Positions 2,620 to 56,014 of a stretch of DNA of 64,000 bases are shown here, piece by piece. Source of the DNA: Patescibacteria group bacterium. GTDB lineage: Bacteria > Patescibacteriota > Patescibacteriia > Patescibacteriales > BS150m-G62. Location of the stretch: positions 5,567 through 69,566 of the forward strand of contig JADHVC010000001.1 of the NCBI GenBank assembly GCA_016784175.1, given 5' to 3'. Under the pieces are notes generated by a model. The model made no database searches. It was not told the origin of the DNA and worked only from the letters and a program-made list of their open reading frames with translations. The position numbers and the translations under genes are program-made. Each line of letters begins with the position of its first letter. Position 1 is the first letter of the stretch.

Positions 2620-3382
2620 ACCAATTTATAAGCTCTGAGCCCCAAAGCATCGTAATAACAGTGGAAAAAGTTAAAAAAACACCAAATGGAACCTCCGAGT
2701 CCATCTTCTTTTTTTTCATCGAGATTAAAGCAACCCCAATTATAGAACCAAGAATATACGAAATAAATAATGCCGCTAATATATTAGGCCAACCTAAGAT
2801 CATACCCATTAAAAATCCAAGCCTAATATCTCCACCCCCTATCCACCGACCACTAGAAACAATAAATTGAATTAAAAAGAAGCTCCCTCCAATTATAGCA
2901 GAAATTAACATACCCGACCAACTAGCTCCTGTTAGTAAGTTTAGCCCAAATATTAGAACAATAGCCGGCAAAGTCACTTTATCCAAAATTAAATAATATT
3001 TTAAGTCATAAATAAAAATCACCACCAATACAGCGATGATAAAAAAGTCACGGAATAGAGCAACAAACGCAACAGCATTATAATTTAAAAAGATATGATC
3101 ATGCCTTAACAAAAAGAACAGAACAAATAATGCCCCCGTAGCCAATTCGACCACAGGGTATTGCCAAGAAATAGATTTTTTACAATGTCGACATCTAGCT
3201 TTCAACCAAACATAACTTAAAACTGGCACATTGTCATACCAATCAATTTGAACCTTACATTTAGGGCACATTGATCTACCATCCACTCTCTTTTGCGCGT
3301 GCAATCGCCAAACAAAACAATTAATAAAACTTCCTATTGAAAGACCCAATATTAAAACTAACAGTATCGAAAATATAAGCAT
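2600..3382 (-). CDS. pilD: prepilin peptidase (A24 family), PilD-like
   Basis: N-terminal tetracysteine zinc-binding region: CPKCKVQIDWYDNVPVLSYVWLKARCRHCKKSISWQYPVVELATG. Polytopic membrane body. Lies in the pilus locus. Confidence 0.85.
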   Translation of the reverse strand: MLIFSILLVLILGLSIGSFINCFVWRLHAQKRVDGRSMCPKCKVQIDWYDNVPVLSYVWLKARCRHCKKSISWQYPVVELATGALFVLFFLLRHDHIFLNYNAVAFVALFRDFFIIAVLVVIFIYDLKYYLILDKVTLPAIVLIFGLNLLTGASWSGMLISAIIGGSFFLIQFIVSSGRWIGGGDIRLGFLMGMILGWPNILAALFISYILGSIIGVALISMKKKKMDSEVPFGVFLTFSTVITMLWGSELINWYVGLLY

Positions 3383-4777: not shown

Positions 4778-6269
4778 ATCTTATTGCTAAAATATTATTA
4801 CTTGGTTTAAAAATACTCACTACCTTAAGATGATATTTAGAAACCAAGAAAGCATCCTCCGGTCTTAAATAGTAAACATCATAAATATTATCTGGGCCTT
4901 TTCTAGTTATAGGGTCAATATCAAACATTCCAAATTTATATCGATAAAAACTAAGTGATGGTGCCAAAATCCAAGTAGAGCCAATCATATGAATGTTTAC
5001 TCCACTCTCCTTTAGACGCGCTATCTTCTCAACCGCTTCACGAGAATTTGCATCATAACCCCATACAAAACTTGAATTATAATTTAATGAATTTAAAAAA
5101 TGAATATAACAAAAAAATATTACCACGATCCCAATAACATTAAAAATATTTTTAACTCTAGCACGACTAGCGATAATGACCATCCACACACCTAAAAATT
5201 GCAACATAAACAAAGGCAATAAGAATATGGCCGCCCGCTCAACTAAGTATCGCGTGCCAAAAAAAATATTTTGAGCCTCAATCCCAAGTAAAATAGAAAC
5301 AATAAGCAAAAGGATCAAACCGAATTCCCTTCTGACAACAAAATATTTACCACATTTCGCCAACACCAATACAATGCCAGTCACCAATTGCATTGATAAA
5401 AAAACCCATGCGATAATCTTAATAATATCGTCTCGATAATTAATACCATATAGTGTTGCTTCAATCAGACTATTAATAGTATCGCTCCATAAATTATTTA
5501 CTCCACCAAAATAAAATTCACCAGAACCATTCATCGCAACAACAGGAAAATAGTAAATTGTTAAAAGTAGTAGCAATGAAGGAACAATTGGAAGCACGAT
5601 TTCATCCCGCACATAGACAAATTTTTGCACAATACTCTTACCACTATTTCTCAGCACCCCAGCTTCAAAGAACAACACAACAACAATACTTCCCAAGTAT
5701 ACATTTAAAAATGCCAAGTTCGACAAGGTCGAGATTGTAAGGCAAGAAAAAACAATAAACAAATATTTTCTTTTTACGCGACCATCATTTAATCCCACCC
5801 ACTTTAAAAAATATATTAAGGCCCAAATAAATGTACCAATTGCCAATGAATACCCACGAGCAAGGGAAAAAAAATCTATAACAAATGGATTTACACTTAG
5901 CAAAACTACACTTGAAAATATTAAGAAATTTTCGTTAAAAAGTTTTTTAGAAATAACAAGCACGCCAGATAAATATAATAGAGCGCCAAATAATACTGGC
6001 ACTCTAGCCACAAACTCATTCAAACCGAATATGGTTGTCGTAAACTTTATCAATAAAGTATTTAGCAAGTGATGATTAGACAAAAGCGAACCCTGAAAAT
6101 ATAAAATATCGTAAAGTGAATTTTGCACATGATACATTACAGTAACTGCCTCATCATGAGTAACTGACAAAAAAACAGAACGCATTAGTGCATACAAAAA
6201 AATTGAAAAAAGAAATAGACTCAATAATGAATCCAAAATACTAACATTTTTTAAACTCTTATAAACCAT
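4764..6269 (-). CDS. GT-C fold glycosyltransferase, ArnT/PMT-like (GT39/GT83-like)
   Basis: 501 aa polytopic protein. An acidic motif sits in the first extracytoplasmic loop (SVTHDEAVTV), typical of polyprenyl-phosphate-sugar-dependent GT-C enzymes. Confidence 0.55.
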   Translation of the reverse strand: MVYKSLKNVSILDSLLSLFLFSIFLYALMRSVFLSVTHDEAVTVMYHVQNSLYDILYFQGSLLSNHHLLNTLLIKFTTTIFGLNEFVARVPVLFGALLYLSGVLVISKKLFNENFLIFSSVVLLSVNPFVIDFFSLARGYSLAIGTFIWALIYFLKWVGLNDGRVKRKYLFIVFSCLTISTLSNLAFLNVYLGSIVVVLFFEAGVLRNSGKSIVQKFVYVRDEIVLPIVPSLLLLLTIYYFPVVAMNGSGEFYFGGVNNLWSDTINSLIEATLYGINYRDDIIKIIAWVFLSMQLVTGIVLVLAKCGKYFVVRREFGLILLLIVSILLGIEAQNIFFGTRYLVERAAIFLLPLFMLQFLGVWMVIIASRARVKNIFNVIGIVVIFFCYIHFLNSLNYNSSFVWGYDANSREAVEKIARLKESGVNIHMIGSTWILAPSLSFYRYKFGMFDIDPITRKGPDNIYDVYYLRPEDAFLVSKYHLKVVSIFKPSNNILAIRYDNY

Positions 6270-6271
6270 AT

Positions 6272-6943
6272 TTAAAGCGCATTACTACTTCTCTTAAAAA
6301 CTTCCGCACCAGAGTGAAAAGCATCTATAGTTTTAAAACCTAAAAGCTTTTCATACCCTTCAGATATTTTTTTATATAGTGAACCTTCCCGAGAAAGATA
6401 GTCCACAGGATAATACAAAACAACATATTCTGCCTCCTCTAGATTACTAGCAAAATCAAAGCTTGGGTAAAGATTGTAAACTAAGTAGGCGTAATAATCA
6501 TGAGGAGCCAATACGTAGATTCGCGAATCTAGTGGCAAGGTCCTCTTAATAAATCTCACATAACTCATAAGAGCACACCACCTCTCTCCATTGCCATGAG
6601 TATATCCAAGGTTACAAAGCCTAACTACATTCTTATGATAGCTCTGCAAATTTCTATCCACATAATCATAATTATCACGCATATCATGCGCATTATTGTA
6701 TGAGAAAATCAAATAAAGCGGAAGCCAAAAAAACAAACACACATATAGAATTGATATATTAAAATTAGTCTTGAATATTTCTATTCTCTTTTTAAACAAA
6801 ACGATAGACAATACAACAATAAAAAGCAGGATACCAATAAATAATCCAACCTCCACCTTGCCAATATATACACCCGGTATCATATTAATAGTATAAAAAG
6901 CTTCCGCCTGATTCACGAAGAATTTATCGAACATTATAAACAA
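6272..6943 (-). CDS. hypothetical membrane-anchored protein
   Basis: 223 aa. Two N-terminal TM helices then a soluble domain. Overlaps the upstream gene by 20 nt. Confidence 0.35.
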   Translation of the reverse strand: MFIMFDKFFVNQAEAFYTINMIPGVYIGKVEVGLFIGILLFIVVLSIVLFKKRIEIFKTNFNISILYVCLFFWLPLYLIFSYNNAHDMRDNYDYVDRNLQSYHKNVVRLCNLGYTHGNGERWCALMSYVRFIKRTLPLDSRIYVLAPHDYYAYLVYNLYPSFDFASNLEEAEYVVLYYPVDYLSREGSLYKKISEGYEKLLGFKTIDAFHSGAEVFKRSSNAL

Positions 6944-9362
6944 ACATATTATTAATTATATTCGGTTGCATGTCATATAATCCATTTAAATATTCAATAG
7001 TATTTCTTAATTGAACATGATAATAATACTCCGGATGAATTATAATATATTTGATATTCAACTTCTCAAAATTATCCAATGCGTCAACTTGAATATTTGA
7101 TATTTGGTTGTGAGGCATTGGTTCCTTAGGATTAATCAAATATGTCAGACCAACTAGCTGACTATAAAAACTATAATAATTATTCGGCACCCTAGAAATC
7201 CAAGCATTAATTAATTTTTTATGATGAATAGACTGATAATATTCAAGTTTAGAGGACACTGAAATATTTCCCAAAGTATAGAAGTTAGTACTTAGTGCAA
7301 ATGGCAACTCTAAGATCGAATAATCCGACTTATCCTGTGCCAATCTATAATAAAGACTTGGAATTTCTGCGTTCGATATTGGAATAGGAGCTAAAATATT
7401 TTCAAATAGAAATACACCGAAAAATAACAATGCTATACTTACCCTTATCACTTCACTCTTTATGCCACTTAATATAAATCTTAACCCAAATGCAGCTAAA
7501 ACAATCAAAGCTAAAATTACAAATATAATAAATCTAGCTGGCACTAAAATACCACTAATAAATGGAACTTTCATTGGCAATAAATATGGCAATGGCACAC
7601 TGAACTCATAATCAAACAAACTAAAAATAAATCCTTCCATATATAAATACGGACCCAACACAACCAATATATACGAAAATATAACAGTTACCCAAAAAGC
7701 GTATACCTTAATATTCTTCCTAAAAGAATTTAAAATCAAACCAACCAATGCAAGAAAGATCAAGGAATAACTCAAATATATCATAGAACCGTGAAAGCCA
7801 AGTGCTTTATAATAATCACCAACAATATCAGAAAATACAGTATGGTATTGCGAAGGCATAAAAAATGACCTGACATCTGGTGAATATAAACTAACTTGTG
7901 ACAAATTTGCTGAAGGATAAGCACCACTCAAGGCCGTTAATACAGATAAATAAATTAGTGGAGATGAAAGTATCAACCACACAACAATAAATATAATTAA
8001 TGATTTAATTTTTTGAAAATAGAATTGTCTCTCAACTATAAAATAGTAAACAATATATATCAGGGCAAATGCTAATAAACCCAACGTATAATAAAACTCA
8101 TTATATAAAGATACAGCTAAAATTATACTAGCAAAAACAGCATTTCTTACACGACTCTCGCTAAAAATTTTTAAAAAAAAGTAAATAAAAAAAGGAATAA
8201 CATAAACGCTAGTATATTGGAAATGTCCCCTTGCCTCACCCAAAACATATGAATTCAAAAAAAACATCAAACCACCGATAATTGCAACTAACTGATTTTT
8301 AACTAAATCCATAAGCAAAAAATACATTCCAAGGCCTGCAAGCACCAATGATCCCAAAAATATTATATTAAACGATATCACTGGCGAAATAACCAGTTGC
8401 AAAGGTATAGATATCAAGCCACTAAAAAATGTTAAGGTATGAAATACTAAATTAGTATCAAAGGGATAAGCTATAAAATTAACAAAATATGGATTTTGAC
8501 CCAAATCAATCAAAGCATACTTAACCCACCACTGGTTCCACAGAAACAAAAATGAATCGCCACCATCGCCAGGAATAGAAGTATCAACATTAATAATTAA
8601 GGGATATGTAGCGACTATTAATGTCAAAAAATATAAAAAAATTACCCAAGAAAGCTTTAGTTTTTTATTCTTTTTTTTTACTAATGTATTTCCTAAGCGA
8701 TGTTTAATTAAGGTTGCAATTGCAGTCAAGCCATCACGCCAACCAATCTTCTTACCCTCTTCAAAACTTCTACCATCATAATCAATTGGCAGCTCCATAA
8801 TCTCATGCCCAGCCAAAATAAATTTCGCAGTAATTTCCGGCTCAATATCAAAGCGATTAGCAACCAAATCAATATCATCTATAACACTTCTACTGAACAT
8901 TTTATAACAAGTTTCCATATCAGTTACCTTCTGGCCATACAAAAAACTTGTCAAAAAAGACAAGAACTTATTACCCACATAAGCCATAAAATACTGGGGC
9001 CTAAAACTCTTATTTAAAAACCTTGATCCATAAACAACCTTCACTTTTCCTAAAATAATTGGCTGAATCAGTTTTATAAAATCCTGGGGGTTATACTCCA
9101 AATCAGCATCTTGCACCACAACAATATCTCCACTTGCATTTTTAAAACCAGTTCTTATGGCAGCGCCTTTCCCACGATTCTTGTCTTGATAAATTATTCT
9201 ATACTTACCTTCTAACTTCGATAAAATATTTCGCGTCGAATCTGTCGAATAATCATCAACAATAATAATTTCTTTATTGATCGGCACCACCTCTACCCTT
9301 CTAATTATTTCTAAGAGGGTCTTCTCTTCATTGTAAACTGGGATTACAATACTTAATTTCAT
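6924..9362 (-). CDS. GT2 glycosyltransferase (polyprenyl-phosphate sugar synthase, DPM1/GtrB-like) fused to a large polytopic membrane domain
   Basis: N-terminus MKLSIVIPVYNEEKTLLEIIRRV...IIVDDYSTDST...VVQDADLEY is a GT-A/GT2 DxD catalytic domain of about 230 aa. It is followed by about 580 aa with many TM helices. Confidence 0.7.
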   Translation of the reverse strand: MKLSIVIPVYNEEKTLLEIIRRVEVVPINKEIIIVDDYSTDSTRNILSKLEGKYRIIYQDKNRGKGAAIRTGFKNASGDIVVVQDADLEYNPQDFIKLIQPIILGKVKVVYGSRFLNKSFRPQYFMAYVGNKFLSFLTSFLYGQKVTDMETCYKMFSRSVIDDIDLVANRFDIEPEITAKFILAGHEIMELPIDYDGRSFEEGKKIGWRDGLTAIATLIKHRLGNTLVKKKNKKLKLSWVIFLYFLTLIVATYPLIINVDTSIPGDGGDSFLFLWNQWWVKYALIDLGQNPYFVNFIAYPFDTNLVFHTLTFFSGLISIPLQLVISPVISFNIIFLGSLVLAGLGMYFLLMDLVKNQLVAIIGGLMFFLNSYVLGEARGHFQYTSVYVIPFFIYFFLKIFSESRVRNAVFASIILAVSLYNEFYYTLGLLAFALIYIVYYFIVERQFYFQKIKSLIIFIVVWLILSSPLIYLSVLTALSGAYPSANLSQVSLYSPDVRSFFMPSQYHTVFSDIVGDYYKALGFHGSMIYLSYSLIFLALVGLILNSFRKNIKVYAFWVTVIFSYILVVLGPYLYMEGFIFSLFDYEFSVPLPYLLPMKVPFISGILVPARFIIFVILALIVLAAFGLRFILSGIKSEVIRVSIALLFFGVFLFENILAPIPISNAEIPSLYYRLAQDKSDYSILELPFALSTNFYTLGNISVSSKLEYYQSIHHKKLINAWISRVPNNYYSFYSQLVGLTYLINPKEPMPHNQISNIQVDALDNFEKLNIKYIIIHPEYYYHVQLRNTIEYLNGLYDMQPNIINNMFVYNVR

Positions 9363-9570: not shown

Positions 9571-10431
9571 ATGATCGAAATTCAAACCCTAAAAAAAAAG
9601 ATAGCTGGTGTAGTGATTATTTATAATCCGCCAAAAAGCTTAATATGCAATATTAATTCCTACATCAACTTTGTCGATACCTTAATTATAATTGACAACT
9701 CTCAACACAGGAATAAAGCAATAATTAATGAATTAAATCAAAATAGAAAAATCATTTACAATTTTAGCAATAAAAACATTGGAATAGCAAAGGCACTAAA
9801 CAAAGCAGCTAACATAGCAATACAAAAAAAATACAACTGGCTTCTTACAATGGATCAGGACAGTAAATTTAACCCAGGAGCACTTAACCTGATGCTTGAG
9901 TTTATACAAAAAAATAACACTGAAACTGTTGGGATAGTGGCACCCATACAAAAAAATAAACTTGAAAAATATCCAACTCACACTGCTGAGTATGAAGAAA
10001 TTCTAAGCAGCATGAACTCTGGAAACCTCATCAATCTAAATATATATAAAAAAACTGGACCATACCTCGAAAAATTATTTATAGATTATGTTGATCACGA
10101 ATATTGTCTAAAAATAAAATCTTATGGATACAAAATTATTCGAATCAATAATGCAATACTATACCACAACCTAGGTAACTTAAAAAAACATGCTTCTTTC
10201 TTAGTCACAAACCACAATGAACAAAGAAGATTTTTCATTACCTTAAATAGACTATACGTAATGAATAAATACAAAAAACAATTTCCGATTTTTTATAATA
10301 TCTGTCTACGCGCTTCAATAAGAGAGTTTGTCTTTATCATATTATTTGAAAATAGAAAATATCTTAAAATAAAAAATATTATAAAGGCAATTATCCATTA
10401 TAATAAAAATTTTAAACTTGATGCAAAATAA
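9571..10431 (+). CDS. GT2 family glycosyltransferase
   Basis: GVVIIYNPPKSLICNIN...LIIIDNSQ...LLTMDQDS is a GT-A fold with DxD motifs. It is the only plus-strand gene in the block. Confidence 0.65.
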   Translation: MIEIQTLKKKIAGVVIIYNPPKSLICNINSYINFVDTLIIIDNSQHRNKAIINELNQNRKIIYNFSNKNIGIAKALNKAANIAIQKKYNWLLTMDQDSKFNPGALNLMLEFIQKNNTETVGIVAPIQKNKLEKYPTHTAEYEEILSSMNSGNLINLNIYKKTGPYLEKLFIDYVDHEYCLKIKSYGYKIIRINNAILYHNLGNLKKHASFLVTNHNEQRRFFITLNRLYVMNKYKKQFPIFYNICLRASIREFVFIILFENRKYLKIKNIIKAIIHYNKNFKLDAK

Positions 10432-10455: not shown

Positions 10456-12933
10456 CTATTTTCTATTCAATAAAATTTGTTTCAACCAAAGTAAATAGTT
10501 AATCTCATTTTTTATTCCGGAAGTCACAATCTGATCATCCATTATAAGTAATTCTTTTCTATTAACTACCTCGTCGGGATAATAATTCAAAACCTTTTCA
10601 ATATATTCGTTAGCTTCCAATATTCTCTCCTGACCGATCAATAAATTTATCAAATTTATATAGTACCTGGGTCTGTACTTATCTAAAGATATTGCGCGCT
10701 TAAATTCATTTTCAGCTTTTAGTGTATTACCATCTGTCTCGAATAATTTTCCACTTAACTCATAATTTAACGAATCACCCTCGTCGTGCTGTATCAAATA
10801 ATTAGCAATAGATCTTGACTCCGCCAACTTCATACTCCTCATATTTTGATCATCCATCTGAAGCCCAAGAGTATATTTTATTATTGCAAGCTCACGCAAA
10901 TATTTTACACTCAGTATATTAACTTTAACGGCTCGTTCTAAATATATTTCTGACTGCACATAATCACCCTGATGTTTATGTGCAACTCCTATATTAAAAT
11001 TATAGTAACTCATAGTTATAACTACGCCAACAACTAAAAATAAACATAACCCGACTAACAAATAAAATTTACCAATATTAATTATATTTATATTAGTATC
11101 TTCAGTGTCGACTTCTACAAAAACTGCATTACTCAACAAACCTAAATAAATCCAAAATATAAAATTATTAACTTGATAATGAGATCCAATATCTATAAAA
11201 TTATGCATCAAAAAAGCTAAAACACATAAATAGATTACTAAACATAAATCATCTTTCCTGCTTAATAAAAAACCATAATACAACATATACAATAAAAATA
11301 AAGCAAAGAAAACAAAATTCACAACCCCTACTTCACTAAGCAATTCTAAATACCAATTATGTGCATATTTTCCAGAACTTAAGGGGTTCACCTGATATTC
11401 CGGATAAGCCAAGCTGAATGTACCAAGCCCACTCCCAAACAATGGATAATTTGCAATTATATCAACAGCACCATTCCAATAATCCAAGCGTATATTTGCC
11501 GACACGTCCCCCACCCCAATACTCGACTCTTCTCGCTCTATGAAAGACGCTTTTGAACCTTTCATAAAATCAATTACACTAAAAAATATACCGATCGATA
11601 GAGTCACTAACACTAAACTAAAATATATATTTTTTAAATTAACTTTCTTAATTACGAATAAAAACAAACAAACAATTCCTCCACATAAAAATGCACCCCT
11701 CGACCCAGTTAAAATTAGTGCCGTGATATTTATTCCAGATAATAGAGCAAATAGAATTTTTCTAAAAAAATCTGTAGAAACAAATAAAAAATACAGGCCA
11801 ATAGGAGTCGTCAAAAGCAAAAAACTAGCGAATGGATTAGGCCAATAAAAAACCGAAGTAAGTCTATTATAACTGCCGCCAAGATAAATATCCAAACCAA
11901 CTAAACTAAGAGTCACAGAAATCAACAATAAAGCGAACAACAATATTTTTACATATCGTCTTCTAAGCCTCAAATGCATAAATATAAAATAAACAATACC
12001 AAAAAATAAATAGTAAAACCAATTAACAAGACTCACTAACAATGAACTTGAAAATGGTAAACTTAAAAATGTTAATAATAGAAATAACGACAACATACTC
12101 ATGGCCGTTAACTTCACACCAGCATGACTTGAGCTCACCACTTTATTATGAATCTTTATAAACAATCTAATTGGACATCTTAATAATTTCATAATATATA
12201 ACTGCACAACACCTAAGTGCTTTCTAAAATAGTAATCTTGTGAAACATAGTACAACTCTTTCTTTAAACTAAATATCTTTGAACTTCCTCCACCCAAATG
12301 TATTAAATGTACTGAAGGTAACACCACGCTCACAAACCCAGCAACATTCACTTTTTTACACAAATCAATATCCTCAAAATACATAAAAAATTTTTCATCA
12401 AAACCACCAACCATATCAAAAATAGATTTTCTAATTACTAATGCAGCACCTGTAACCCAATCGGTCTCAAAATATCCATTCCTACATTCACGTTTTCCTA
12501 CTTTAAACTTATTAGAAATTAAACTGAATATATTTGGAAAATCACCATATGCATGTGCCTGCTCACTTCCATCTTCAAGGATCAACTTTGGCAAGACAAT
12601 ACCCACCCCCTCATTAAATATAAATAATTCATCTATCTTTTCTAGAATGTTATCACTTACAATTGTGTCAGAATTTAAAAAAAACAAATATTTACCAGTA
12701 GCAATTTTTGACGCTTGATTATTAGCACATCCAAAACCAACATTTGTTTTATTACTTATTATCTTAACTTTATTAATAAATTTATCTTTAAAATACTCAA
12801 CACTTCCATCGCAAGAATTATTATCAACCAAAATAATTTCAAACATCCTTTCTGAACAATGTTTTAAAACAGAAATTATACAGTTCTTTGTTAACTCTAA
12901 TGTATTATAATTTACTATTATAATTGAAAACAT
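10456..12933 (-). CDS. fusion protein: N-terminal GT2, central O-antigen-ligase-like (Wzy_C) polytopic domain, C-terminal TPR repeats
   Basis: N-terminus MFSIIIVNYNTLELTKNCIISVLKHC...ILVDNNSCDGS is a GT2 domain. The middle has about 10 TM helices with a long periplasmic loop, the Wzy_C/O-antigen ligase architecture. The C-terminus has TPR-like repeats (YLERAVKVN..., ENEFKRAISLDKYRPRYYINLINLLIGQERILEANEYIEKVLNYYPD). Confidence 0.6.
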   Translation of the reverse strand: MFSIIIVNYNTLELTKNCIISVLKHCSERMFEIILVDNNSCDGSVEYFKDKFINKVKIISNKTNVGFGCANNQASKIATGKYLFFLNSDTIVSDNILEKIDELFIFNEGVGIVLPKLILEDGSEQAHAYGDFPNIFSLISNKFKVGKRECRNGYFETDWVTGAALVIRKSIFDMVGGFDEKFFMYFEDIDLCKKVNVAGFVSVVLPSVHLIHLGGGSSKIFSLKKELYYVSQDYYFRKHLGVVQLYIMKLLRCPIRLFIKIHNKVVSSSHAGVKLTAMSMLSLFLLLTFLSLPFSSSLLVSLVNWFYYLFFGIVYFIFMHLRLRRRYVKILLFALLLISVTLSLVGLDIYLGGSYNRLTSVFYWPNPFASFLLLTTPIGLYFLFVSTDFFRKILFALLSGINITALILTGSRGAFLCGGIVCLFLFVIKKVNLKNIYFSLVLVTLSIGIFFSVIDFMKGSKASFIEREESSIGVGDVSANIRLDYWNGAVDIIANYPLFGSGLGTFSLAYPEYQVNPLSSGKYAHNWYLELLSEVGVVNFVFFALFLLYMLYYGFLLSRKDDLCLVIYLCVLAFLMHNFIDIGSHYQVNNFIFWIYLGLLSNAVFVEVDTEDTNINIINIGKFYLLVGLCLFLVVGVVITMSYYNFNIGVAHKHQGDYVQSEIYLERAVKVNILSVKYLRELAIIKYTLGLQMDDQNMRSMKLAESRSIANYLIQHDEGDSLNYELSGKLFETDGNTLKAENEFKRAISLDKYRPRYYINLINLLIGQERILEANEYIEKVLNYYPDEVVNRKELLIMDDQIVTSGIKNEINYLLWLKQILLNRK

Positions 12934-12944
12934 ATAATCTCAAT

Positions 12945-14954
12945 TTATTTATCTATTTGGCTAATTAAATTTTCAAATACCTCTCTCTCTATCCTTACCT
13001 CTTCTTTATGCTCCCCATGAATAATGAGATTTAACTTTTCATTTGCAAGATCAGGAAGCTTGTTTAGTCCCCTATTTAAATATGCTAATGCTTCCGTGGG
13101 CCTATCTTGCCAAAAGAGCAATTGAGCTAAGTTTCGATAATGTATCGTAAAATTTGGATTATACTCTATCGCTTTTTTATATTCCATCTCTGCCTCACTA
13201 AAATATTCAGAGTTATAGTAACTACCAATATATGTATATGCATGCGCGACACTAATCATCGACCTAAATGAATAATTCATTAATTTTATATCCTTAACAA
13301 TACTTAGTAAATCACTTACTAGCTCATGCTTAACTACGCCAGTCTCCATTTGTGATAAACACCTTGAACCATACTCTAAAAAATCTTCCTTGTATGTTAC
13401 TTTATTTGGATTTAAAAATATAGCCATATTTATATTCTCGACAAAATCAGAGCAATTATTTGACGTTAAATATTTGTCTGCGCGTGAACGAAAAAAATCT
13501 GCCCGAGCTACAAATATTAGTTCATAACTCATAAACAGTGCAAAAACCATCACAACCATTAACAATAATCTTTTAAAATATATTTCATTAAAGTACAAAA
13601 CAACAAAACTATCACTTAAAACACAAAGATTCTGAACCAAGATAACCATAAAACCTAAGCACAACAAAGCCATCATATTCCCAACTACTAAAGAAAAACT
13701 AAATAAATCATTAACTGTATGAGCAAATAAAGAGCAAGCTAAAGCAATTATAAGCCAGCACTCATCACGATTAGATTTATCAAGGCCTCTTATGCACGAC
13801 AAGCCGAGGGATAATATATAACAAAATATTGAAATCAATAATAAAAAACCAATAATACCAACTTGTAAAAGTGAGTCCAATACAAAGCTATGTGCACGAG
13901 AGGGATAAGTATTTACTTTTTCATAAATAGCCAGCTCTGGTTTATAATGCTTAGCAAAAATATAATCTAAAGTATCAGGACCATAACCAAACAAAACCCT
14001 AACACTAGTCGCACCTCTCAATTCATCTAATGCGGAACCCCAATGAATCATTCTATTTTTTACTGAACCACTGCTAAAATCTGCAATACTCTTAACTCGC
14101 TGAGCAAAAATGGGACTCAATTGCATTAAGACTATCCCCAAAAATAAAATACCAATCATTATAACATAATGAACCATATTTAATTTAAACTTTAAGGCGT
14201 CAAGGCGTTTAAGATTTAGTGCAAAGAATATCAAAATAATTAAAACAGCGAAGCCGAGCCCAAGCCAAGCTGCTCTTGAATAGGTTAAAATTAAACATAT
14301 AAATTGCAACACAACTAAGCCCAACAAGCTCACCCTCCAAAACATATTAGATGCTAGGAAATAGACTGAATATATAGAAAGCGGAATTACAATTATCAAA
14401 TAATGTCCAAGATAGTTTGGATGACCTAGTGTCGATGATAGTCTATCAGCAAAAGAGTTCTCCATAACACCAAAAAACTGCAATAAACCAAAAACACAAA
14501 CAACAAAAGAAGCTGCACAGAGACAAATTATAAATCTCTTTATCTGACTTAAACTCGAAACACTAAAAACAAGAAGCAAAAAAAATAAAACATAAAAAAA
14601 ATAACTTACAAATCCCTGTTCACGCAAATTTCCACCCCAAATACTTTGATTTAAATTTAAAGAAAAAACTGATGAGATAAATACAGATACTAAATATAAA
14701 AAACACAACGAGATTAAAGTAACTTGTACTTTACTAAACCTCAAACCAGTTCTCAAATTGTCTTTATCAACAAAATATTTAAATATTAACAATAACCACC
14801 CCCCCCCTACTAGCACTTGAAAAATAACCAACTTAGGTAAAATAAATATATCATAAAACTCATTAAAAAAAGCAATGTATACAGGAATAATTAAAACTAT
14901 AGCATATATCAAATAGTCAATAAACCGATCAATATTATTAATAATAACTTTCAT
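12945..14954 (-). CDS. O-antigen-ligase-like (Wzy_C family) polytopic membrane protein with C-terminal TPR repeats
   Basis: 669 aa, multi-TM with a large loop. C-terminal TPR-like segment (EMEYKKAIEYNPNFTIHYRNLAQLLFWQDRPTEALAYLNRGL). It is a paralogous architecture to the neighbouring fusion gene. Confidence 0.55.
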   Translation of the reverse strand: MKVIINNIDRFIDYLIYAIVLIIPVYIAFFNEFYDIFILPKLVIFQVLVGGGWLLLIFKYFVDKDNLRTGLRFSKVQVTLISLCFLYLVSVFISSVFSLNLNQSIWGGNLREQGFVSYFFYVLFFLLLVFSVSSLSQIKRFIICLCAASFVVCVFGLLQFFGVMENSFADRLSSTLGHPNYLGHYLIIVIPLSIYSVYFLASNMFWRVSLLGLVVLQFICLILTYSRAAWLGLGFAVLIILIFFALNLKRLDALKFKLNMVHYVIMIGILFLGIVLMQLSPIFAQRVKSIADFSSGSVKNRMIHWGSALDELRGATSVRVLFGYGPDTLDYIFAKHYKPELAIYEKVNTYPSRAHSFVLDSLLQVGIIGFLLLISIFCYILSLGLSCIRGLDKSNRDECWLIIALACSLFAHTVNDLFSFSLVVGNMMALLCLGFMVILVQNLCVLSDSFVVLYFNEIYFKRLLLMVVMVFALFMSYELIFVARADFFRSRADKYLTSNNCSDFVENINMAIFLNPNKVTYKEDFLEYGSRCLSQMETGVVKHELVSDLLSIVKDIKLMNYSFRSMISVAHAYTYIGSYYNSEYFSEAEMEYKKAIEYNPNFTIHYRNLAQLLFWQDRPTEALAYLNRGLNKLPDLANEKLNLIIHGEHKEEVRIEREVFENLISQIDK

Positions 14955-15042: not shown

Positions 15043-15495
15043 TTAACCACCCCAAATTCCAGCTTCAGAAGCTGTTTGAACACCTGCTGGAATCCCACCA
15101 GTCACATTCTCAAGACTATACTGAAGTTTATAAGCCCTTTTATTTACTGGATCTACATTCGTATAAGTATATTCAACATCTCCATTGGGCTGAGGCGTTT
15201 TTGGCACCCTTGTCATATATATTAAAGACGCATCCGAACAAGTCGAATTAAAACCAGAATTTTTTGAATCCAAACACTTATTCCCAATATCAACATTTTC
15301 ACCAGGAGGATAAGAATATTTATCATTATAATAAATTTCCAATGCCGATTGAAGCTGCTTTATATCTGAAATACGACGAGCATCTCTAGACTTCGATCTA
15401 GCTCCATTCAATGCAATCACAGCAAAAGTTGAAAGCAAACCAATTATGGCAATTACTACTAGCAATTCTATAAGAGTAAAACCTTTTTTATTCAT
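15043..15495 (-). CDS. type IV pilin (major pilin-like paralog 2)
   Basis: MNKKGFTLIELLVVIAIIGLLSTFAVIALNGARSKSRDARRISDIKQLQSALEIYYND is a canonical class III leader plus alpha-1 helix. Two Cys near the C-terminus, consistent with a D-region disulfide. Confidence 0.85.
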   Translation of the reverse strand: MNKKGFTLIELLVVIAIIGLLSTFAVIALNGARSKSRDARRISDIKQLQSALEIYYNDKYSYPPGENVDIGNKCLDSKNSGFNSTCSDASLIYMTRVPKTPQPNGDVEYTYTNVDPVNKRAYKLQYSLENVTGGIPAGVQTASEAGIWGG

Positions 15496-15718: not shown

Positions 15719-16198
15719 TTAATCAACAATTTTAGAAGCACCATAGATACCAGCTTGTGAAGCAGTGTTCACGCCAGCTGGAACGCCACCAGCACCATTT
15801 TCTAAAGTATATTCGATCTTGTATTCTCTAGCATTTGCAGTGTCTGTATTCCTATACTTATATGCACTTCCATTTGGTGCAGGGTTAGAAGGAACTCTTG
15901 TCATATAAATAGTACCCGTTGGGTTACAAGTAGTTTCTACGAATCCATTTGTGAATAGTTGCAAACATTTATTACCAATTTCAATCGGATTAGCTCCAGT
16001 AGTAGGAGGATATCCATTAGCATCGTTATAATAAAGCTCTAAAGCAGATTGAATTTGCTTAATATCAGAAACACGACGTGCATCTCTAGACTTTGATCTA
16101 GCATTATTTAACGCAATAACAGCTAAAGTTGATAGTAAACCAATAATAGCAATTACTACTAATAGCTCGATTAATGTAAAACCTTTTTGTCTTTTCAT
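15719..16198 (-). CDS. type IV pilin (major pilin-like paralog 1)
   Basis: MKRQKGFTLIELLVVIAIIGLLSTLAVIALNNARSKSRDARRVSDIKQIQSALELYYND. Strong Shine-Dalgarno aagggggtga 7 nt upstream. Two C-terminal Cys. Confidence 0.85.
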   Translation of the reverse strand: MKRQKGFTLIELLVVIAIIGLLSTLAVIALNNARSKSRDARRVSDIKQIQSALELYYNDANGYPPTTGANPIEIGNKCLQLFTNGFVETTCNPTGTIYMTRVPSNPAPNGSAYKYRNTDTANAREYKIEYTLENGAGGVPAGVNTASQAGIYGASKIVD

Positions 16199-16339: not shown

Positions 16340-16531
16340 GTTTAACTGCTCATTATGTCTGCATTATTTTTGAGCGTATATGGAATATGTAATAATTTTT
16401 AGCATAATTTAACTTAAAAAAATTTTATGTTTGAGTGAAGCGAGTTTAAAATTTTTGTTAAATTGTGCGTAAAAAATTGCCCAATATTCCATCCTAAGCG
16501 AAAAAGTGATGCAGGTATAGTGAGTACTTAC
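16340..16531. mobile_element. MITE-like element copy A (about 192 bp, 23-bp terminal inverted repeats)
   Basis: The ends are an inverted pair: left gtttaactgctcattatgtctgcat, right atgcaggtatagtgagtacttac. The body is about 90% identical to copy B. The right end abuts the pilC stop codon. Confidence 0.6.
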
Positions 16532-17739
16532 TACGCTGTTGCCATATTATACATGGGCAATATTACAGCTGCCACCATAGTTCCCACCGCAATTCCCATA
16601 ATAACCATAATAATTGGCTCCATTAATGTCATCAAATTATCGATTGTAGTATTTACCTCACGCTGATAAAACTGAGCCACTCTACCTAGAATCATATCCA
16701 ATTTGCCCGTCTTCTCTCCAATACTCGCCATTTGTGACATCATCTGAGGAATCAATTTCGAAGTTGACAACACACTTGACATAGGACTTCCGTCCTCTAC
16801 TTCTTCCGTTGTTTTTTTGATTAATTTCGCAAAAACCTTATTATTTACTACCTCACCAGACACCTTAAGACTCTCAGTTACAGTAATACCACCGGAAATC
16901 AAAGTCTCCATCGATCGTGAAAAACGAACAATATAAATCTTTTGAAACAACTTACCAAATATTGGCAACTTAAGTAATACATAATCAGCAACATATCCAC
17001 CTTTTGGAGTAGCAACATAGTACTTAAAACCAACGCCAGCACATATTGCACCGATAAAAATCAATATCCAATAATTTTGCATAAAATCAGACAATCCTAT
17101 TAAAATTCGTGTAGCAATAGGTAACTCCACGCCTGATTCAGTCAATACACCAGTCAATTTTGGCACAACAAATACCATCATCACGACACCGACAACAGTC
17201 AAACCAGTCATAACAAAAGCAGGATAAGTCATAGCACCCTTAATCTTTGACATCATATCATAATCCTTTTCCACTTCATCGGCCAAATAAGTTAATGACT
17301 CTGCTAATTTTCCAGAACTTTCGCCACCTCGTATTACACTAGTATGAAAACCAGTAAATACCTTTGGATGACGCGACATAGCATCAGACAGCCTAGAACC
17401 AGAATCAACCTCGTCTGCAACCTCTGAGATAAGCATTTTAAGCTTAATACTTTCAGTTTGCTCAACAATAATCTTTAAAGCTTGCACCATTGCAACATTA
17501 GCAGAAACCATAACCGAAAATTGCCTAAAAAATATCACAAGATCACGAGTTTTAACTGATGAACCAAAAGAAATTACAAAGTTCTTCGATGTAGCCTTGA
17601 TTTTTTGCGCTTCAACAAAAATAACCTTAAGGCCCTCAGCGACAACAAGCCCAGAAGCCTCTTTCTCACTCACCGCGTCCACCAACCCCTCCACTTCCTC
17701 GCCCTGGGTATTTATTGCTTTATATTTGAATACTGCCAT
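16531..17739 (-). CDS. pilC: type IV pilus assembly platform protein PilC (GspF family)
   Basis: 402 aa with two T2SS-F type repeats. N-terminus MAVFKYKAINTQGEEVEG.. is typical of PilC. Three TM segments. Confidence 0.85.
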   Translation of the reverse strand: MAVFKYKAINTQGEEVEGLVDAVSEKEASGLVVAEGLKVIFVEAQKIKATSKNFVISFGSSVKTRDLVIFFRQFSVMVSANVAMVQALKIIVEQTESIKLKMLISEVADEVDSGSRLSDAMSRHPKVFTGFHTSVIRGGESSGKLAESLTYLADEVEKDYDMMSKIKGAMTYPAFVMTGLTVVGVVMMVFVVPKLTGVLTESGVELPIATRILIGLSDFMQNYWILIFIGAICAGVGFKYYVATPKGGYVADYVLLKLPIFGKLFQKIYIVRFSRSMETLISGGITVTESLKVSGEVVNNKVFAKLIKKTTEEVEDGSPMSSVLSTSKLIPQMMSQMASIGEKTGKLDMILGRVAQFYQREVNTTIDNLMTLMEPIIMVIMGIAVGTMVAAVILPMYNMATA

Positions 17740-17762
17740 ATAATTATAGATTATATTCTTAC

Positions 17763-17951
17763 GTAACTACTCACTATATCTGCATTATTTTTGAGCGCAT
17801 ATGGAATATGTAGTAATTTTTAGCACAATTTAACTTAAAAAATTTTATGTTTGAGTGAAGCGAGTTTAAAATTTTTGTTAAATTGTGCGTAAAAAATTGC
17901 CCAATATTCAATCCTAAGCGAAAAAGTGATGCAGATATAGTGAGCAGTTAC
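17763..17951. mobile_element. MITE-like element copy B (189 bp, 23-bp perfect terminal inverted repeats)
   Basis: Left end gtaactactcactatatctgcat and right end atgcagatatagtgagcagttac are reverse complements. Sits between the response regulator stop and the pilC start. Confidence 0.6.
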
Positions 17952-17955
17952 ATTC

Positions 17956-18387
17956 TTACTTCTTTACTAATTGTTTTTTCTTTACTACAGAACTTTTTTT
18001 AGATTTCTTTAGAAGACCCTCTACTTTTTCTACGACCTCAGAAGGCATAAAATGCGCCTTCACTAAATAATCATCTGCTCCCATTGCAAGCCCCCTATCA
18101 ATATCTTTTCTTTGACTCAAATTAGTTAGCAAGATAATTGGTATACCATCAGTTTTTTTGTCTTTTTTAATCTCTCTTAAAAATCCAAAACCATCCAATT
18201 TCGGCATCAAAATATCAAGCAAAATAATATCAGGACTCTTTACTTTCACTAAATCTAATCCCTCCATACCATTCGAAGCTACGAAAACTTTATAATTTTC
18301 ACCTTCAAATTTTGTCGAGTAAATATTTAATAAAAAATAATCATCTTCAACAATCAAAATTACTCCTTTTGGTTTTTGCTTTACCAT
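17956..18387 (-). CDS. stand-alone response regulator receiver domain protein (CheY-like) with Lys-rich C-terminal tail
   Basis: ILIVEDDYFLL...ILLDILMP...DDYLVK shows the conserved receiver Asp residues and a phospho-acceptor in the LLDILMP context. The tail is KKSKKSSVVKKKQLVKK. Confidence 0.8.
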   Translation of the reverse strand: MVKQKPKGVILIVEDDYFLLNIYSTKFEGENYKVFVASNGMEGLDLVKVKSPDIILLDILMPKLDGFGFLREIKKDKKTDGIPIILLTNLSQRKDIDRGLAMGADDYLVKAHFMPSEVVEKVEGLLKKSKKSSVVKKKQLVKK

Positions 18388-18470
18388 ATTTTACTAATAT
18401 AAATAATTATTTATAAAACTTATAGAGAGCTAAATTATACATCAAATATAAAATCGCCTCTTCATATTTT

Positions 18471-20219
18471 TTAACCAGACACAACTCTAAATATTTCCTC
18501 CAAAGTAGTCTTCCCCTGTAGTGCTTTAATAATACCATCTTGCATTAAATCAATAAATGTTTGTGTTGCCTGCACATCGTCTAATGATATCGGTCTATCT
18601 GGCTCATATATCAATTTACGCAATTCATCATTAATATCAATGATCTCCGTAATAGCTAATCGACCAGTATATCCAGTATTTCCACATCGAGGACAACCCT
18701 CTCCCTTATAAAATTGAATCTTATCTACATCATAGCCCTTAATACGTCTTTTTAATACATCTATTGGGGTTTTTTTAAGACTATCATACACTTGCTTAGA
18801 AGCACTCTTTGGAAGATCTGCCTTTACTCGACAATTTGAACAAATTCTGCGAACCAATCTTTGAGCTAAAATAACATTAATAGTGGATGCCAACAAGAAT
18901 CTCTCAGCATTCATATCGATCAATCTAGGAATTGCTCCAATGGCGTTGTTAGTATGCAGTGTTGATAGAACTAGATGGCCTGTTAAGGCAGCGTGTATGC
19001 CGAGTTCAGCAGTTTCATTATCACGAATTTCTCCGACCATCATAATATCTGGATCTTGTCTTAACAATGTACGCAAACCAGATGCAAATGTATAGCCAAG
19101 TAGAGGTCTAATTTGAGACTGATTTACTCCAGGCACATAATACTCAACCGGATCCTCCAATGTAGAGATATTTACACCTTCCTTGTTGATCAAGTTAAGT
19201 ATTGAAAAAAGAGTAGTTGATTTACCAGACCCAGTTGGCCCAGTAATCAAAAATATACCATAAGTCTTTTTCATCTGCTCTCTAATAACCTTCCCTTCCC
19301 TATCCTCAAACCCAAGTTCCTCTAAAGTTGGAGCTCCTTTCGTAACATCTAAAATTCTCATTACAACCTTTTCAGTATCCACTAATGGAATAATTGAAAC
19401 ACGGAAGTCAATCTCATTATCATTAATAAGCAATCGAATACGACCACCCTGAGGAATTCTTGTTTCGTCCAATTTTAAACCAGCCAAAACTTTAATTCTT
19501 GCCACAACCGCATAGTGAATATTTTTAGGTAAAACCAAAGAAGTATGAAGTATTCCATCAATACGATATCTAACCCTAGTCTCCCTAAGCAATGGCTCAA
19601 TATGAATATCACTTGCTTTACCATCAACCGCATGCCTAATAATAACAGAAACAATCTTTGTAACTGGGGCTGATTTAACAACTTCCTCAAGCTCTACACT
19701 TTCAACCTCCTTCTCTTTAATTTCAATCAACTCTTTATCATCCTCCTCCTTAGCCTGTAACGCGGAAACCACTTCCCTACTCATTGATTCGTATTGCTTC
19801 CTAGCATGATTATAGCTAGCAGATGAGATCAAAAAATATTCAATTCTTAGCTGCTTCTTTTTAGCCAAAAAATCCAAAGCACCGATTGCCTTAAAATCAT
19901 CAGGGTTAACTAAACCAACCTTCATAGTTTTTTCATCTTTTTGAAAACAGATAGCCTTATAATTTTCCGAAACCTCATTCGGAATCATATTAAGATCCAT
20001 GTCATTAATCTTTGCAGAAAAAAGGTTTATATATTCAATACCGCTCAAACTAGCCTTCAAATTAATTAACTTCTCTTCGTCAATAAGTTGTTTAGATATC
20101 AACACAAACTCTAAAGATTTCTTCTTTTCATTCGCTTGCTCTTCAGCCTTACTAATATTTACCTGACTTATTAAATTATTTTTTACTAGAGCTTTAATGA
20201 GCTCAGATTTTTTTACCAT
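18471..20219 (-). CDS. pilB: type IV pilus assembly ATPase PilB (GspE family)
   Basis: Walker A GPTGSGKSTT, Asp/His boxes, and the tetracysteine CSNCR...CPRCGNTG. N-terminal GSPII_E_N-like region. Confidence 0.9.
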   Translation of the reverse strand: MVKKSELIKALVKNNLISQVNISKAEEQANEKKKSLEFVLISKQLIDEEKLINLKASLSGIEYINLFSAKINDMDLNMIPNEVSENYKAICFQKDEKTMKVGLVNPDDFKAIGALDFLAKKKQLRIEYFLISSASYNHARKQYESMSREVVSALQAKEEDDKELIEIKEKEVESVELEEVVKSAPVTKIVSVIIRHAVDGKASDIHIEPLLRETRVRYRIDGILHTSLVLPKNIHYAVVARIKVLAGLKLDETRIPQGGRIRLLINDNEIDFRVSIIPLVDTEKVVMRILDVTKGAPTLEELGFEDREGKVIREQMKKTYGIFLITGPTGSGKSTTLFSILNLINKEGVNISTLEDPVEYYVPGVNQSQIRPLLGYTFASGLRTLLRQDPDIMMVGEIRDNETAELGIHAALTGHLVLSTLHTNNAIGAIPRLIDMNAERFLLASTINVILAQRLVRRICSNCRVKADLPKSASKQVYDSLKKTPIDVLKRRIKGYDVDKIQFYKGEGCPRCGNTGYTGRLAITEIIDINDELRKLIYEPDRPISLDDVQATQTFIDLMQDGIIKALQGKTTLEEIFRVVSG

Positions 20220-20245
20220 ATATTCTAAACTTCAATATATAAAAT

Positions 20246-20620
20246 TTATTTTATCTCAAAACTTTTAAACGGGTCTTTTTTGCCCAAATTTATATCAATA
20301 ACCTCAGCCGAATTTTCTCTAAGTGATCTAAACTTAGGATCATAAAATAACTCAATATCAAAATATCTTTGTATTTTAGACATTACATCCTCCCCATCCA
20401 CCTTATCCTTATTAATATCCACAATAGCACTCGATCTTGATCCATAATAAGCAGGTAGCCCCAGATCTGGCTCAGTCAAATCAAATGTCTTAACATAATA
20501 ACTATAAGTTAAATAAATAGTTCCAACCACCATAGTAAGTATAATAGCTGAATGCACTGCTAATTTTTTCTTTTGTGTTACTTTTGTTGCAATTAACATT
20601 TTATTTTTGATAATAAGCAA
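20246..20620 (-). CDS. small membrane-anchored protein (PilP-like position)
   Basis: 124 aa, single N-terminal TM segment, located between pilO-like and pilB. Assignment rests on position only. Confidence 0.35.
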   Translation of the reverse strand: MLIIKNKMLIATKVTQKKKLAVHSAIILTMVVGTIYLTYSYYVKTFDLTEPDLGLPAYYGSRSSAIVDINKDKVDGEDVMSKIQRYFDIELFYDPKFRSLRENSAEVIDINLGKKDPFKSFEIK

Positions 20621-21158
20621 GAATTATTAAACTAGAACCCTTTCCCCCAGGTGCAAAAGTTAATGATTGTATATCCATCAATCTTAAATTATTCTCAAGC
20701 GATCTTAACAAATTCTTAAAACCTAAATAATCAGCTCCCACAACATTAATATTAATTTCCGCACTACCAATGTCTGGTGTTAAATTTTTCGCCTCCCTAG
20801 TAGTAATATTAGAAAGAAACAGCCCATTTTGCATCATAATAACCTCCATCTGTTTTATCAACTCCTCAAGCTCAATTTTCTTCGGTAAAATTTTATCCAA
20901 CTTGGCTATATTCTTACTATCAATACTGTCATAAACAATTGTTAATTCTTCCAACCTAGACAACTCACTCTTCAATGACAAATATCTTTGTTCACGCACC
21001 GCAGCCTCACTTCCTACTCGCTCATCTGCTGATTGCTTCTTTGGCAAAAGAATAAAAAAATAACTACCGATTAAAATACCAAGTACAATAACAATAACAA
21101 TTGTATTAAAATAATACCCTAGATAATAATTTATTTGTTTTTGATACGGTATATTCAT
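20601..21158 (-). CDS. PilO-like pilus assembly protein
   Basis: 185 aa with a short cytoplasmic N-terminus, one TM, a coiled-coil segment, then a C-terminal globular domain. This is the PilN/PilO architecture, and it sits in the pilMNOP position. Confidence 0.5.
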   Translation of the reverse strand: MNIPYQKQINYYLGYYFNTIVIVIVLGILIGSYFFILLPKKQSADERVGSEAAVREQRYLSLKSELSRLEELTIVYDSIDSKNIAKLDKILPKKIELEELIKQMEVIMMQNGLFLSNITTREAKNLTPDIGSAEININVVGADYLGFKNLLRSLENNLRLMDIQSLTFAPGGKGSSLIILAYYQK

Positions 21159-21159
21159 T

Positions 21160-22995: not shown

Positions 22996-23060
22996 AGATG
23001 TTTATATTATTAAAAATATTTTTTTGAACCAAAGCTTTAATAAGACACACAAGAAATAGT

Positions 23061-42455: not shown

Positions 42456-42499
42456 AATAAAAGAAAGACTTAGACAAAATCAAGTTCATAAATTTTGAC

Positions 42500-42928: not shown

Positions 42929-42944
42929 ATCTCTAGTTTAATTG

Positions 42945-44641: not shown

Positions 44642-44657
44642 AAATATAGAAAAAATC

Positions 44658-56011: not shown

Positions 56012-56014
56012 AAT

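Follow-up and report, generated by a model that had tools for sequence, protein, structure and literature searches.

The stretch of DNA examined here (the window; 64,000 nucleotides of contig JADHVC010000001.1, assembly GCA_016784175.1) comes from a metagenome-assembled genome (MAG) of an ultrasmall Patescibacteria bacterium. At positions 4-24122 it carries one type IV pilus locus, encoded on the minus strand throughout except for one gene. Between the major pilin genes and the gene for the prepilin peptidase PilD lie two membrane proteins of 669 and 825 amino acids (aa), each combining a WaaL-type ligase core with a tetratricopeptide repeat (TPR) tail, together with further glycosyltransferase genes, and a glycosylation module is proposed to be inserted at this point. 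The reading favoured below, to which we give slightly better than an even chance, is that the pilins, or a wider set of PilD substrates, are O-glycosylated by a TPR-bearing relative of the O-oligosaccharyltransferases (O-OTases).

Two ligase-like proteins between the pilins and PilD

In the order of transcription, the locus opens with PilM, a 611-aa protein, a PilO-like protein, a 124-aa open reading frame (ORF), PilB, a response regulator and PilC. These are followed by pilin 1, pilin 2, the 669-aa protein, the 825-aa protein, a glycosyltransferase family 2 (GT2) gene on the plus strand and an 812-aa fusion. Membrane proteins of 223, 501 and 457 aa, PilD, an immunoglobulin (Ig)-domain protein and two minor pilins complete the series. 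Pilin 1 (159 aa; 15719..16198, minus strand; N_methyl E 1.3e-10) ends in ...GVNTASQAGIYGASKIVD, and pilin 2 (150 aa; 15043..15495, minus strand; N_methyl E 4.9e-9) ends in ...GVQTASEAGIWGG. The initial annotation had placed the ligase genes upstream of the pilins; being on the minus strand, they lie directly downstream (3') of them, 88 nucleotides past the stop of the second pilin. The 669-aa protein (type 1) is encoded at 12945..14954 and the 825-aa protein (type 2), a three-part fusion, at 10456..12933. Both ORFs are on the minus strand, coincide exactly with these coordinates and stand 11 nucleotides apart. PilD follows at 2600..3382 (minus strand; A24_N_bact E 4.3e-30, Peptidase_A24 E 8e-13 in Pfam), with about 9.5 kb inserted between the type-1 gene and PilD.

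Both proteins match Wzy_C (Pfam PF04932) well above its cut-off of 31.7 bits, the 669-aa protein with 58 bits (E 1.1e-15) and the 825-aa protein with 71 bits (E 1.2e-19). Residues 3-108 of the 825-aa protein match Glycos_transf_2 (E 5.8e-19), and related GT2 models extend to residue 210. By hidden Markov model the TPR tail is marginal, with TPR_2 at 27.1 bits against a cut-off of 27.0 and TPR_19 at E 1.2e-4; it is seen in the structural models. The description of two tandem Wzy_C proteins with TPR tails, one of them headed by a GT2 domain, is thereby borne out. The two proteins are collinear through core, extra helix and TPR tail, with 24% identity across 548 residues (E 1e-18); they are old paralogues.

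Alignment-based AlphaFold2 models of both proteins are confident, with a mean predicted local distance difference test score of 91.5 for the 825-aa protein and of 89.4 for the 669-aa protein (predicted TM-score 0.90). The 669-aa model consists of a WaaL-fold core of 12 transmembrane (TM) helices (residues 1-443), a thirteenth TM helix from about residue 457 (model helix 457-497) and the TPR tail (501-668). Within the core, nine TM helices are followed by a loop and then three more; this large helical loop, residues 279-356, is predicted to face outward. The 825-aa model begins with a GT2 domain of GT-A fold (residues 1-265), continues through a 16-residue linker into a WaaL-fold core of 10 TM helices (270-601), in which the first two of the type-1 core are missing, and ends with an extra TM helix from about residue 615 (model helix 615-654) and the TPR tail (658-824). 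The tail measures about 170 residues in both proteins, and both ligase cores adopt the polytopic fold of the WaaL type. When the 825-aa model was compared with the PDB by Foldseek, the top 50 matches listed held only GT-A matches.

The conserved residues are R171, S226-R227, R301, G323/G325 and H355-N356 in the 669-aa protein, and R357, S411-R412, R482, G500/G502 and H525-N526 in the 825-aa protein. R227, R301, H355 and the G-x-G motif are invariant in 50 family members, and invariant or nearly so across the family. In hhalign alignments, R227/R301/H355 and R412/R482/H525 fall on R215/R288/H338 of Escherichia coli K-12 WaaL; the alignments score weakly overall (E 6e-4; E 2e-3 for the 825-type), and the register is identical in both. 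These three residues are functionally required in WaaL and conserved in PglL (PMC3643930), and the His is required in TfpM (PMC9829042). Both proteins belong to the Wzy_C/WaaL superfamily. A structural role, in which the TPR tail would serve as a scaffold or alignment factor replacing the TPR proteins PilF/PilW of Gram-negative bacteria and the WaaL-like core as a membrane anchor, is highly improbable. The catalytic Arg, Arg and His and the G-x-G motif remain invariant over hundreds of divergent members, which argues for retained activity. PilF/PilW are outer-membrane lipoproteins serving the secretin, and no secretin was found in the locus by Pfam; nor are the ligase-like proteins free-standing lipoproteins of this pilotin kind.

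The short loops agree with the positive-inside rule: the 669-aa protein has 13 Lys and Arg residues inside and 4 outside, the 825-aa protein 11 and 2. The N-terminus is predicted to lie inside, as in WaaL, which would place the conserved motifs, the large catalytic loop and the TPR tail on the outer side; helix counts and charge distribution both predict the outward loop that the initial annotation had put forward for checking. The GT2 domain of the 825-aa protein is predicted to be cytoplasmic, consistent with the need of a nucleotide-sugar enzyme to be located there.

Gene neighbourhoods of the two protein types

An HMMER scan of 1.84 billion cluster representatives for the 669-aa family yielded 202 at E <1e-30, nearly all of 650-800 aa and matching from the first helix through the TPR tail, so that the union of Wzy_C and TPR is a large family and no rarity. 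Automated annotation names these proteins merely "O-antigen ligase family protein", and in the literature on Patescibacteria, including the cultured Saccharibacteria, no description of the WaaL/TPR family or of its link to the pilus was found. Scanning one genome per GTDB species gave 80 loci, which were annotated by means of the pilus proteins of the window and a pattern for the prepilin motif. As far as they are named, these loci belong to Patescibacteria, Falkowbacteria, Buchananbacteria, Parcubacteria and Saccharimonadales included; many records bear placeholder names, and one is labelled Planctomycetota.

A pilus gene is a neighbour of the ligase gene in 73 of the 80 loci, and five of the remaining seven are truncated close to the gene. 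Of the 57 loci in which at least 1.5 kb is available on both sides, 54 show a pilin immediately upstream or PilD downstream, and 24 combine the two. A pilin stands immediately upstream in every close relative (E <1e-60) for which a judgement was possible (25/25). Pilin motifs occur at 0.52 per kb in the upstream 1.5 kb, falling to at most 0.012 per kb from 1.5 to 10 kb, and the 8 kb downstream include PilD in 55 of 66 loci, with a median gap of about 60 nucleotides. Divergent members usually have no pilin close by, yet PilD is still the next gene. Two of them show the order secD-secF-ligase-PilD-ftsA-ftsZ (L055, 7282-15691; L057, 7489-15557), and neither a pilin nor a pilus assembly gene occurs within 10 kb of the ligase-PilD pair. 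From these positions of pilin and PilD, the conserved unit is pilin(s), WaaL/TPR enzyme and PilD. Two Wzy_C proteins with TPR tails from outside Patescibacteria were examined, and both lie outside pilus loci.

The suggested co-occurrence with pilus genes is strongly upheld by this survey, and the link rests mainly on the 669-type. The pair of ligase genes beside the pilins is real in the window; no second Wzy_C gene occurs in any of the 80 survey loci, and the tandem arrangement is therefore an exception. An assignment of one ligase to each pilin was considered and rejected, as relatives whose loci encode two or three pilins possess just one ligase gene.

The core and TPR tail of the 825-aa protein have about 15 close homologues at 35-44% identity, all of 600-640 aa. 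Six of these orthologues could be placed in context, and in four cases the orthologue stands in a pilus locus as its second Wzy_C/TPR gene, situated between a type-1 gene of 760-773 aa (where visible) and PilD; the link of this type to pilus loci is to that extent supported. The surrounding gene content differs by genome and includes methyltransferases, a sulfotransferase, glycosyltransferases of families GT1, GT2 and GT10, a DegT aminotransferase and radical S-adenosylmethionine enzymes. On the 3' side there usually follow a small GT2, an approximately 215-aa membrane protein and a GT-C glycosyltransferase of the PMT_2 type, and the orthologous locus L001 shares this plan. The 825-type is a rarer second copy within a variable glycan island, a pattern as in O-antigen or pgl loci.

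The GT2 domain is missing from all of the approximately 15 close orthologues, and the series GT2, Wzy_C and TPR is seen only in this MAG's own protein. The three-domain fusion reported by the initial annotation is thus present and is a one-off. Its GT2 part (12139..12933, minus strand; delimited by MAFFT alignment) aligns over its full length with stand-alone genes located just before PilD in three survey loci (L009, L012 and L013; phmmer E 1e-84 to 1e-87), which stop at the position of residue ~262. The linker after the GT2 domain runs into the first core helix, entering from the cytoplasmic side. Given this alignment and this entry side, the fusion is topologically sound and joins two genes of one locus. 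The DNA at the junction (12090-12170, minus strand) has no in-frame stop and contains an out-of-frame TAATAA. Met codons are present at residues 278 and 280, just before the first core helix. It is conceivable that the core is translated separately from the GT2 domain, and the fusion, seen in a single MAG, may have arisen because a stop codon was lost recently, or may be an error of assembly. An ORF of 102 aa runs antisense within the 825-aa gene (11540-11848, plus strand) and is most likely spurious, the genome being AT-rich.

Related GT2 domains are fused to more distant Wzy_C proteins without TPR (P0006, P0011 and P0013). In two loci, a GT2-Wzy_C fusion of 695-721 aa without TPR is followed by a Wzy_C gene of about 400 aa (L007, 10001-13418; L094, 2877-6215). 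Neither pair has pilus genes beside it, and the L007 pair follows a Wzx flippase gene and two GT2 genes.

The recurrence of such pairs would fit a division of labour in which the GT2-fused 825-type would polymerise or extend the glycan on its lipid carrier and the 669-type alone would ligate it. This arrangement, compatible with pilin glycosylation, is quite unlikely. It would suit the observations that the 825-type is only ever an addition to a 669-type gene, amid glycan-tailoring genes, and that it is devoid of the two N-terminal TM helices of the WaaL core. Against it, the 825-type retains the TPR tail and the full Arg/Arg/His set, which is typical of ligases and O-OTases and not of Wzy polymerases. 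Moreover, the ORFs scanned with Pfam, namely those of the locus and 30 further ORFs across the window, gave no Polysacc_synt or Wzz match and include neither a Wzx flippase nor a Wzz chain-length regulator that could partner a Wzy polymerase.

Candidate acceptor, donor and proposed transfer

For the acceptor, the survey covered 60 pilins whose genes lie no more than 1.5 kb upstream of a family member. Within their last 25 residues, 46 of the 60 contain A-[ST]-x-x-G, with the Ser or Thr usually 6-8 residues from the C-terminus and its alignment column 96% Ser or Thr. Both window pilins carry the motif, as TASQAG and TASEAG. A-[ST]-x-x-G may be an acceptor site. The typical sub-terminal form, read from the window pilins and 58 pilins of loci L001-L077, is G-T-H-x-A-[ST]-P-x-G-[IL]. 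In two-pilin loci the distal pilin is often of another type, ending in ...(I/V)RGW and lacking the motif.

The favoured reading, O-glycosylation of pilins or other PilD substrates, is hypothesized to proceed as follows. The 669-aa protein would use its WaaL-type GT-C core, with the active-site loop outside the cytoplasmic membrane, to accept a glycan linked to polyprenyl diphosphate as donor. One further TM helix would bring the TPR domain to the same outer side, and the tail would there draw in the pilin, or else the complex responsible, together with PilD, for pilin processing. The finished glycan would then be moved from the polyprenyl-diphosphate carrier to a Ser or Thr of the membrane-anchored pilin, a reaction that would parallel those of TfpO, TfpM, PglL and PglS in Proteobacteria. 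The 825-aa paralogue would act as an accessory second enzyme of the same kind inside the strain-variable sugar island, its cytoplasmic N-terminus fused here to a GT2 for which other genomes have a gene of its own in this locus. From gene order we infer that the pilin is the acceptor. A glycosylation module tied to the type IV pilus, as first suggested, is in this way consistent with the domains, the predicted topology and the neighbourhood; its self-containment is not, as the donor genes described below show.

The four described O-OTase families, TfpO, TfpM, PglL and PglS, measure 420-600 aa, and none has a TPR tail (PMC9829042). The pilin-specific TfpO (PilO) and TfpM of Pseudomonas, Acinetobacter and Moraxellaceae share with the window proteins a Wzy_C enzyme with an essential His, encoded directly 3' of a pilin in the same orientation; the 88-nucleotide gap agrees with this adjacency. 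They differ in having 420-470 aa and no extra domain and in modifying a C-terminal Ser or Thr (PMC9829042), whereas the window proteins have 669 and 825 aa, an extra TM helix and a TPR tail, are coupled to PilD in gene order and come from another phylum, one without an outer membrane. PglL and PglS, which are general or ComP-specific, likewise contain Wzy_C with the conserved Arg/Arg/His and modify internal sequons; they comprise 520-600 aa without a TPR tail, and PglL_A is not detected in the window proteins. Genes for PglL-like O-OTases adjoin pilin genes in 21 of 31 cases (PMC3643930). Kinship with PglL and PilO, as originally noted, therefore extends to the Wzy_C superfamily, and the proteins are not PglL or TfpO/PilO in the strict sense, because PglL_A is undetected in them and the pilins encoded beside them end in neither Ser nor Thr.

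WaaL itself (7tpj; CAZy GT121) transfers its glycan to lipid A-core, is 15% identical and has neither the extra TM helix nor the TPR tail. Patescibacteria are thought to lack lipopolysaccharide (LPS); the window ORFs scanned included no genes for lipid A or its core. The nearest design analogue of the WaaL/TPR proteins is the eukaryotic TMTC family. TMTC1-4 are GT-C O-mannosyltransferases with luminal TPR repeats that act on cadherins (PMC7001481, PMC7801869). The shared design is a polytopic lipid-linked-sugar transferase with a non-cytoplasmic TPR domain and specific protein acceptors. This likeness is one of analogy and not homology, as TMTCs belong to the PMT clan and use dolichyl-phosphate-mannose in place of a diphosphate-linked oligosaccharide.

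Further genes lie between the ligase-like genes and PilD. The first, on the plus strand at 9571..10431 and part of the variable sugar island, encodes a rhamnosyltransferase-like GT2 of 286 aa (Pfam GT2 E 3.8e-13), whose TIGR01556 match (E 6e-30) is under the family cut-off. It is followed by the 812-aa GT2-membrane fusion (6924..9362, minus strand; Pfam GT2 E 3.4e-36). The N-terminus of this fusion is 60% identical to a stand-alone 229-aa GT2 in L089 and weakly resembles AglJ, dolichyl-P-hexose transferase, ArnC and PgfS, all under their cut-offs; the initial description of it as a DPM1-like GT2-membrane fusion agrees with this likeness to polyprenyl-phosphate sugar synthases. Its C-terminal part is a polytopic membrane domain of 580 residues that matches nothing in Pfam at E up to 10; in L016 and L075 an ORF of its own encodes this part. 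Besides the 825-aa protein, the locus thus has a second fusion in the 812-aa protein, the halves of which are separate genes in relatives.

The 223-aa membrane protein (6272..6943, minus strand) is 34% identical to 213-220-aa neighbours of PMT_2 genes in L089 and L090. A homologue lies between the ligase gene and PilD in nine survey loci and recurs with the GT-C gene. The 501-aa polytopic membrane protein (4764..6269, minus strand) has a homologue after the same genes in L006 and no match in Pfam (E up to 10) or NCBIfam; it does not resemble the C-terminal part of the 812-aa protein, and neither of the two resembles the large membrane proteins found in L001 and L090. The 457-aa protein (3404..4777, minus strand), a GT-C-type glycosyltransferase of PMT_2/ArnT likeness, gives no Pfam match itself even at E up to 10, and is 43-45% identical over its full length to proteins of L089 and L090 that carry the Pfam family PMT_2, a GT-C family; its earlier description as ArnT/PMT-like is sustained by these annotated homologues.

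A trio made up of a GT2, an approximately 220-aa membrane protein and a GT-C is situated between the ligase gene and PilD in about nine survey loci and fits a polyprenyl-monophosphate sugar route. In TfpW (acting on group IV pilins of Pseudomonas aeruginosa), in Ppm1/Pmt of Actinobacteria and in the Gtr and Pgf systems, a GT2 polyprenyl-phosphate sugar synthase is combined with a GT-C, and these are linked to surface proteins. We take the window's trio of GT2, 223-aa and 457-aa proteins (3404-9362) to resemble these arrangements, although no sequence relation is detectable beyond the family level. The trio would add single sugars from a polyprenyl-monophosphate donor, and it may decorate the glycan rather than the protein.

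The initial annotation had proposed a self-contained lipid-linked sugar pathway. This does not hold: among the ORFs scanned in the window there is neither an initiating phosphoglycosyltransferase nor a Wzx, and the diphosphate-linked donor must therefore come from elsewhere. A second glycan cluster lies about 25 kb from the pilus locus, at 40591-48847 on the minus strand. It comprises a GT1, an ABC-2 permease with an ATP-binding cassette (ABC) ATPase of the Wzm/Wzt kind, two GT2 genes, a methyltransferase, an FdtA/WxcM-like isomerase and a DegT gene, which suggests an ABC-transporter-dependent polymer with a 3-amino-3,6-dideoxyhexose. It is possible that this cluster provides the lipid-linked glycan donor for the ligases. 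Within it, an NAD-dependent epimerase/dehydratase is distributed over two overlapping ORFs (47330-47743 and 47592-48059, minus strand) and may represent a frameshift or a pseudogene.

Several points weigh against pilin glycosylation, the missing initiating enzyme and flippase among them. The side of the membrane on which the TPR tail lies follows from counting helices, because the last cytoplasmic loop, which precedes the extra TM helix, contains no Lys or Arg. PglL_A (PF15864), the motif by which PglL is told apart from WaaL, and Wzy_C_2 are undetected in both proteins by Pfam at E up to 0.01. On the acceptor side, a C-terminal Ser or Thr occurs in 2 of the 60 adjacent pilins, unlike the substrates of TfpO/TfpM, whose terminal-residue rule is thus inapplicable; the window pilins end in ...WGG and ...KIVD. 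The A-[ST]-x-x-G motif could be an element of the pilin fold instead of an acceptor site. Pilin glycosylation in Saccharibacteria is so far a prediction (PMC12206443), and no Patescibacteria pilin is known to carry a glycan. In Southlakia, a cultured Saccharibacterium, the only annotated O-antigen ligase adjoins a sugar transferase and not PilD. Its gene SEML1_0863 (450 aa, from transposon-sequencing tables) was considered as a proxy for the family and rejected, since no PilD stands beside it. Finally, two of the six 825-type relatives examined lie outside a recognisable pilus locus: P0003 adjoins Wzx and GT1 genes, and P0002 is located in a glycosyltransferase-rich part of a short contig that also has a type-1 gene and the window's downstream genes.

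The position of P0003 would suit a different function, that of a general envelope-glycan ligase or polymerase. In this alternative the acceptor would be a lipid anchor, the cell wall or a surface-layer protein, and the genes would stand in the pilus locus because surface structures are regulated together, not because pilin is the substrate. Wzy_C proteins do include ligases and polymerases for non-protein acceptors (PMC10920833). The divergent members among the housekeeping envelope genes secDF and ftsAZ, the GT2-Wzy_C fusions of L007 and L094 in polysaccharide-type clusters and the Wzm/Wzt-type cluster of the window itself are in accord with it. We nevertheless hold it to be unlikely. The placement between pilin and PilD is tight and conserved in direction over 80 species, with pilin motifs locally enriched more than 40-fold, and PilD, whose only known substrates are prepilin-type, persists as the partner even beside secDF and ftsAZ. 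In Proteobacteria, those Wzy_C enzymes with genes beside pilin genes that have been tested to date are O-OTases acting on pilin (PMC3643930, PMC9829042).

Within the preferred reading, O-glycosylation of pilins or other PilD substrates, a more specific proposal is put forward tentatively, with somewhat less than an even chance. The 669-type might constitute a fifth O-OTase class, found throughout Patescibacteria and characterized by a WaaL core, a thirteenth TM helix, an outward TPR domain that binds the acceptor, coupling to PilD, a sub-terminal A-[ST]-x-x-G site and a pilus glycoform set for each lineage by the island. Type IV pili are the best-supported tools of Patescibacteria for host attachment, movement and probably DNA uptake. 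A lineage-specific pilus glycoform, if true, could shape host recognition and the evasion of phages or immunity in these episymbionts, and an enzyme situated between pilin gene and PilD, together with a hypervariable sugar island, offers a testable handle on variation of surface filaments. Protein O-glycosylation of the WaaL type would likewise be extended to a phylum without LPS, and glycoconjugate engineering could profit from an O-OTase that brings its own protein-binding domain and uses an internal sequon.

Other genes of the locus and the window

The pilus assembly genes occupy 16531..24122 on the minus strand, in a gene order that matches L001 and most survey loci. Pfam identifies PilM at 23061-24122, PilB at 18471-20219 and PilC at 16531-17739. 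The 611-aa protein (21160-22995, minus strand) holds the position of PilN between PilM and the PilO-like protein and is kept in nearly all related loci. It consists of a 443-residue N-terminal region with 133 Lys and Arg residues, one TM helix and a 144-residue tail, and matches no Pfam family. In many relatives (L009-L013, L017, L023, L031, L037, L038, L043, L051 and L053), a second, shorter PilB-like ATPase of about 350 aa is located between the response regulator and PilC and possibly serves in retraction. The window and L001 are without it, a 216-nucleotide gap standing in its place.

Upstream of pilin 1, the best promoter-like site of a promoter scan lies at 16296-16268 with a score of 11/12; such sites are no more numerous in the pilus region than in shuffled sequence. 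The terminator scan found none between the pilins and the ligase genes. Past PilD, the locus closes with the Ig-domain protein (1123-2619) and two minor pilins (534-1091 and 4-537), all identified by Pfam on the minus strand; the same tail of PilD, Ig-like protein and pilins is present in L088.

At 54402-61997 on the plus strand, the window contains a type I restriction-modification system with an N6 methylase, a specificity subunit and an R subunit. A DUF3800 gene is interposed between the methylase and specificity genes. The match to the N6 methylase begins at model position 41, behind a separate ORF of 208 aa, and the methylase gene may be split.

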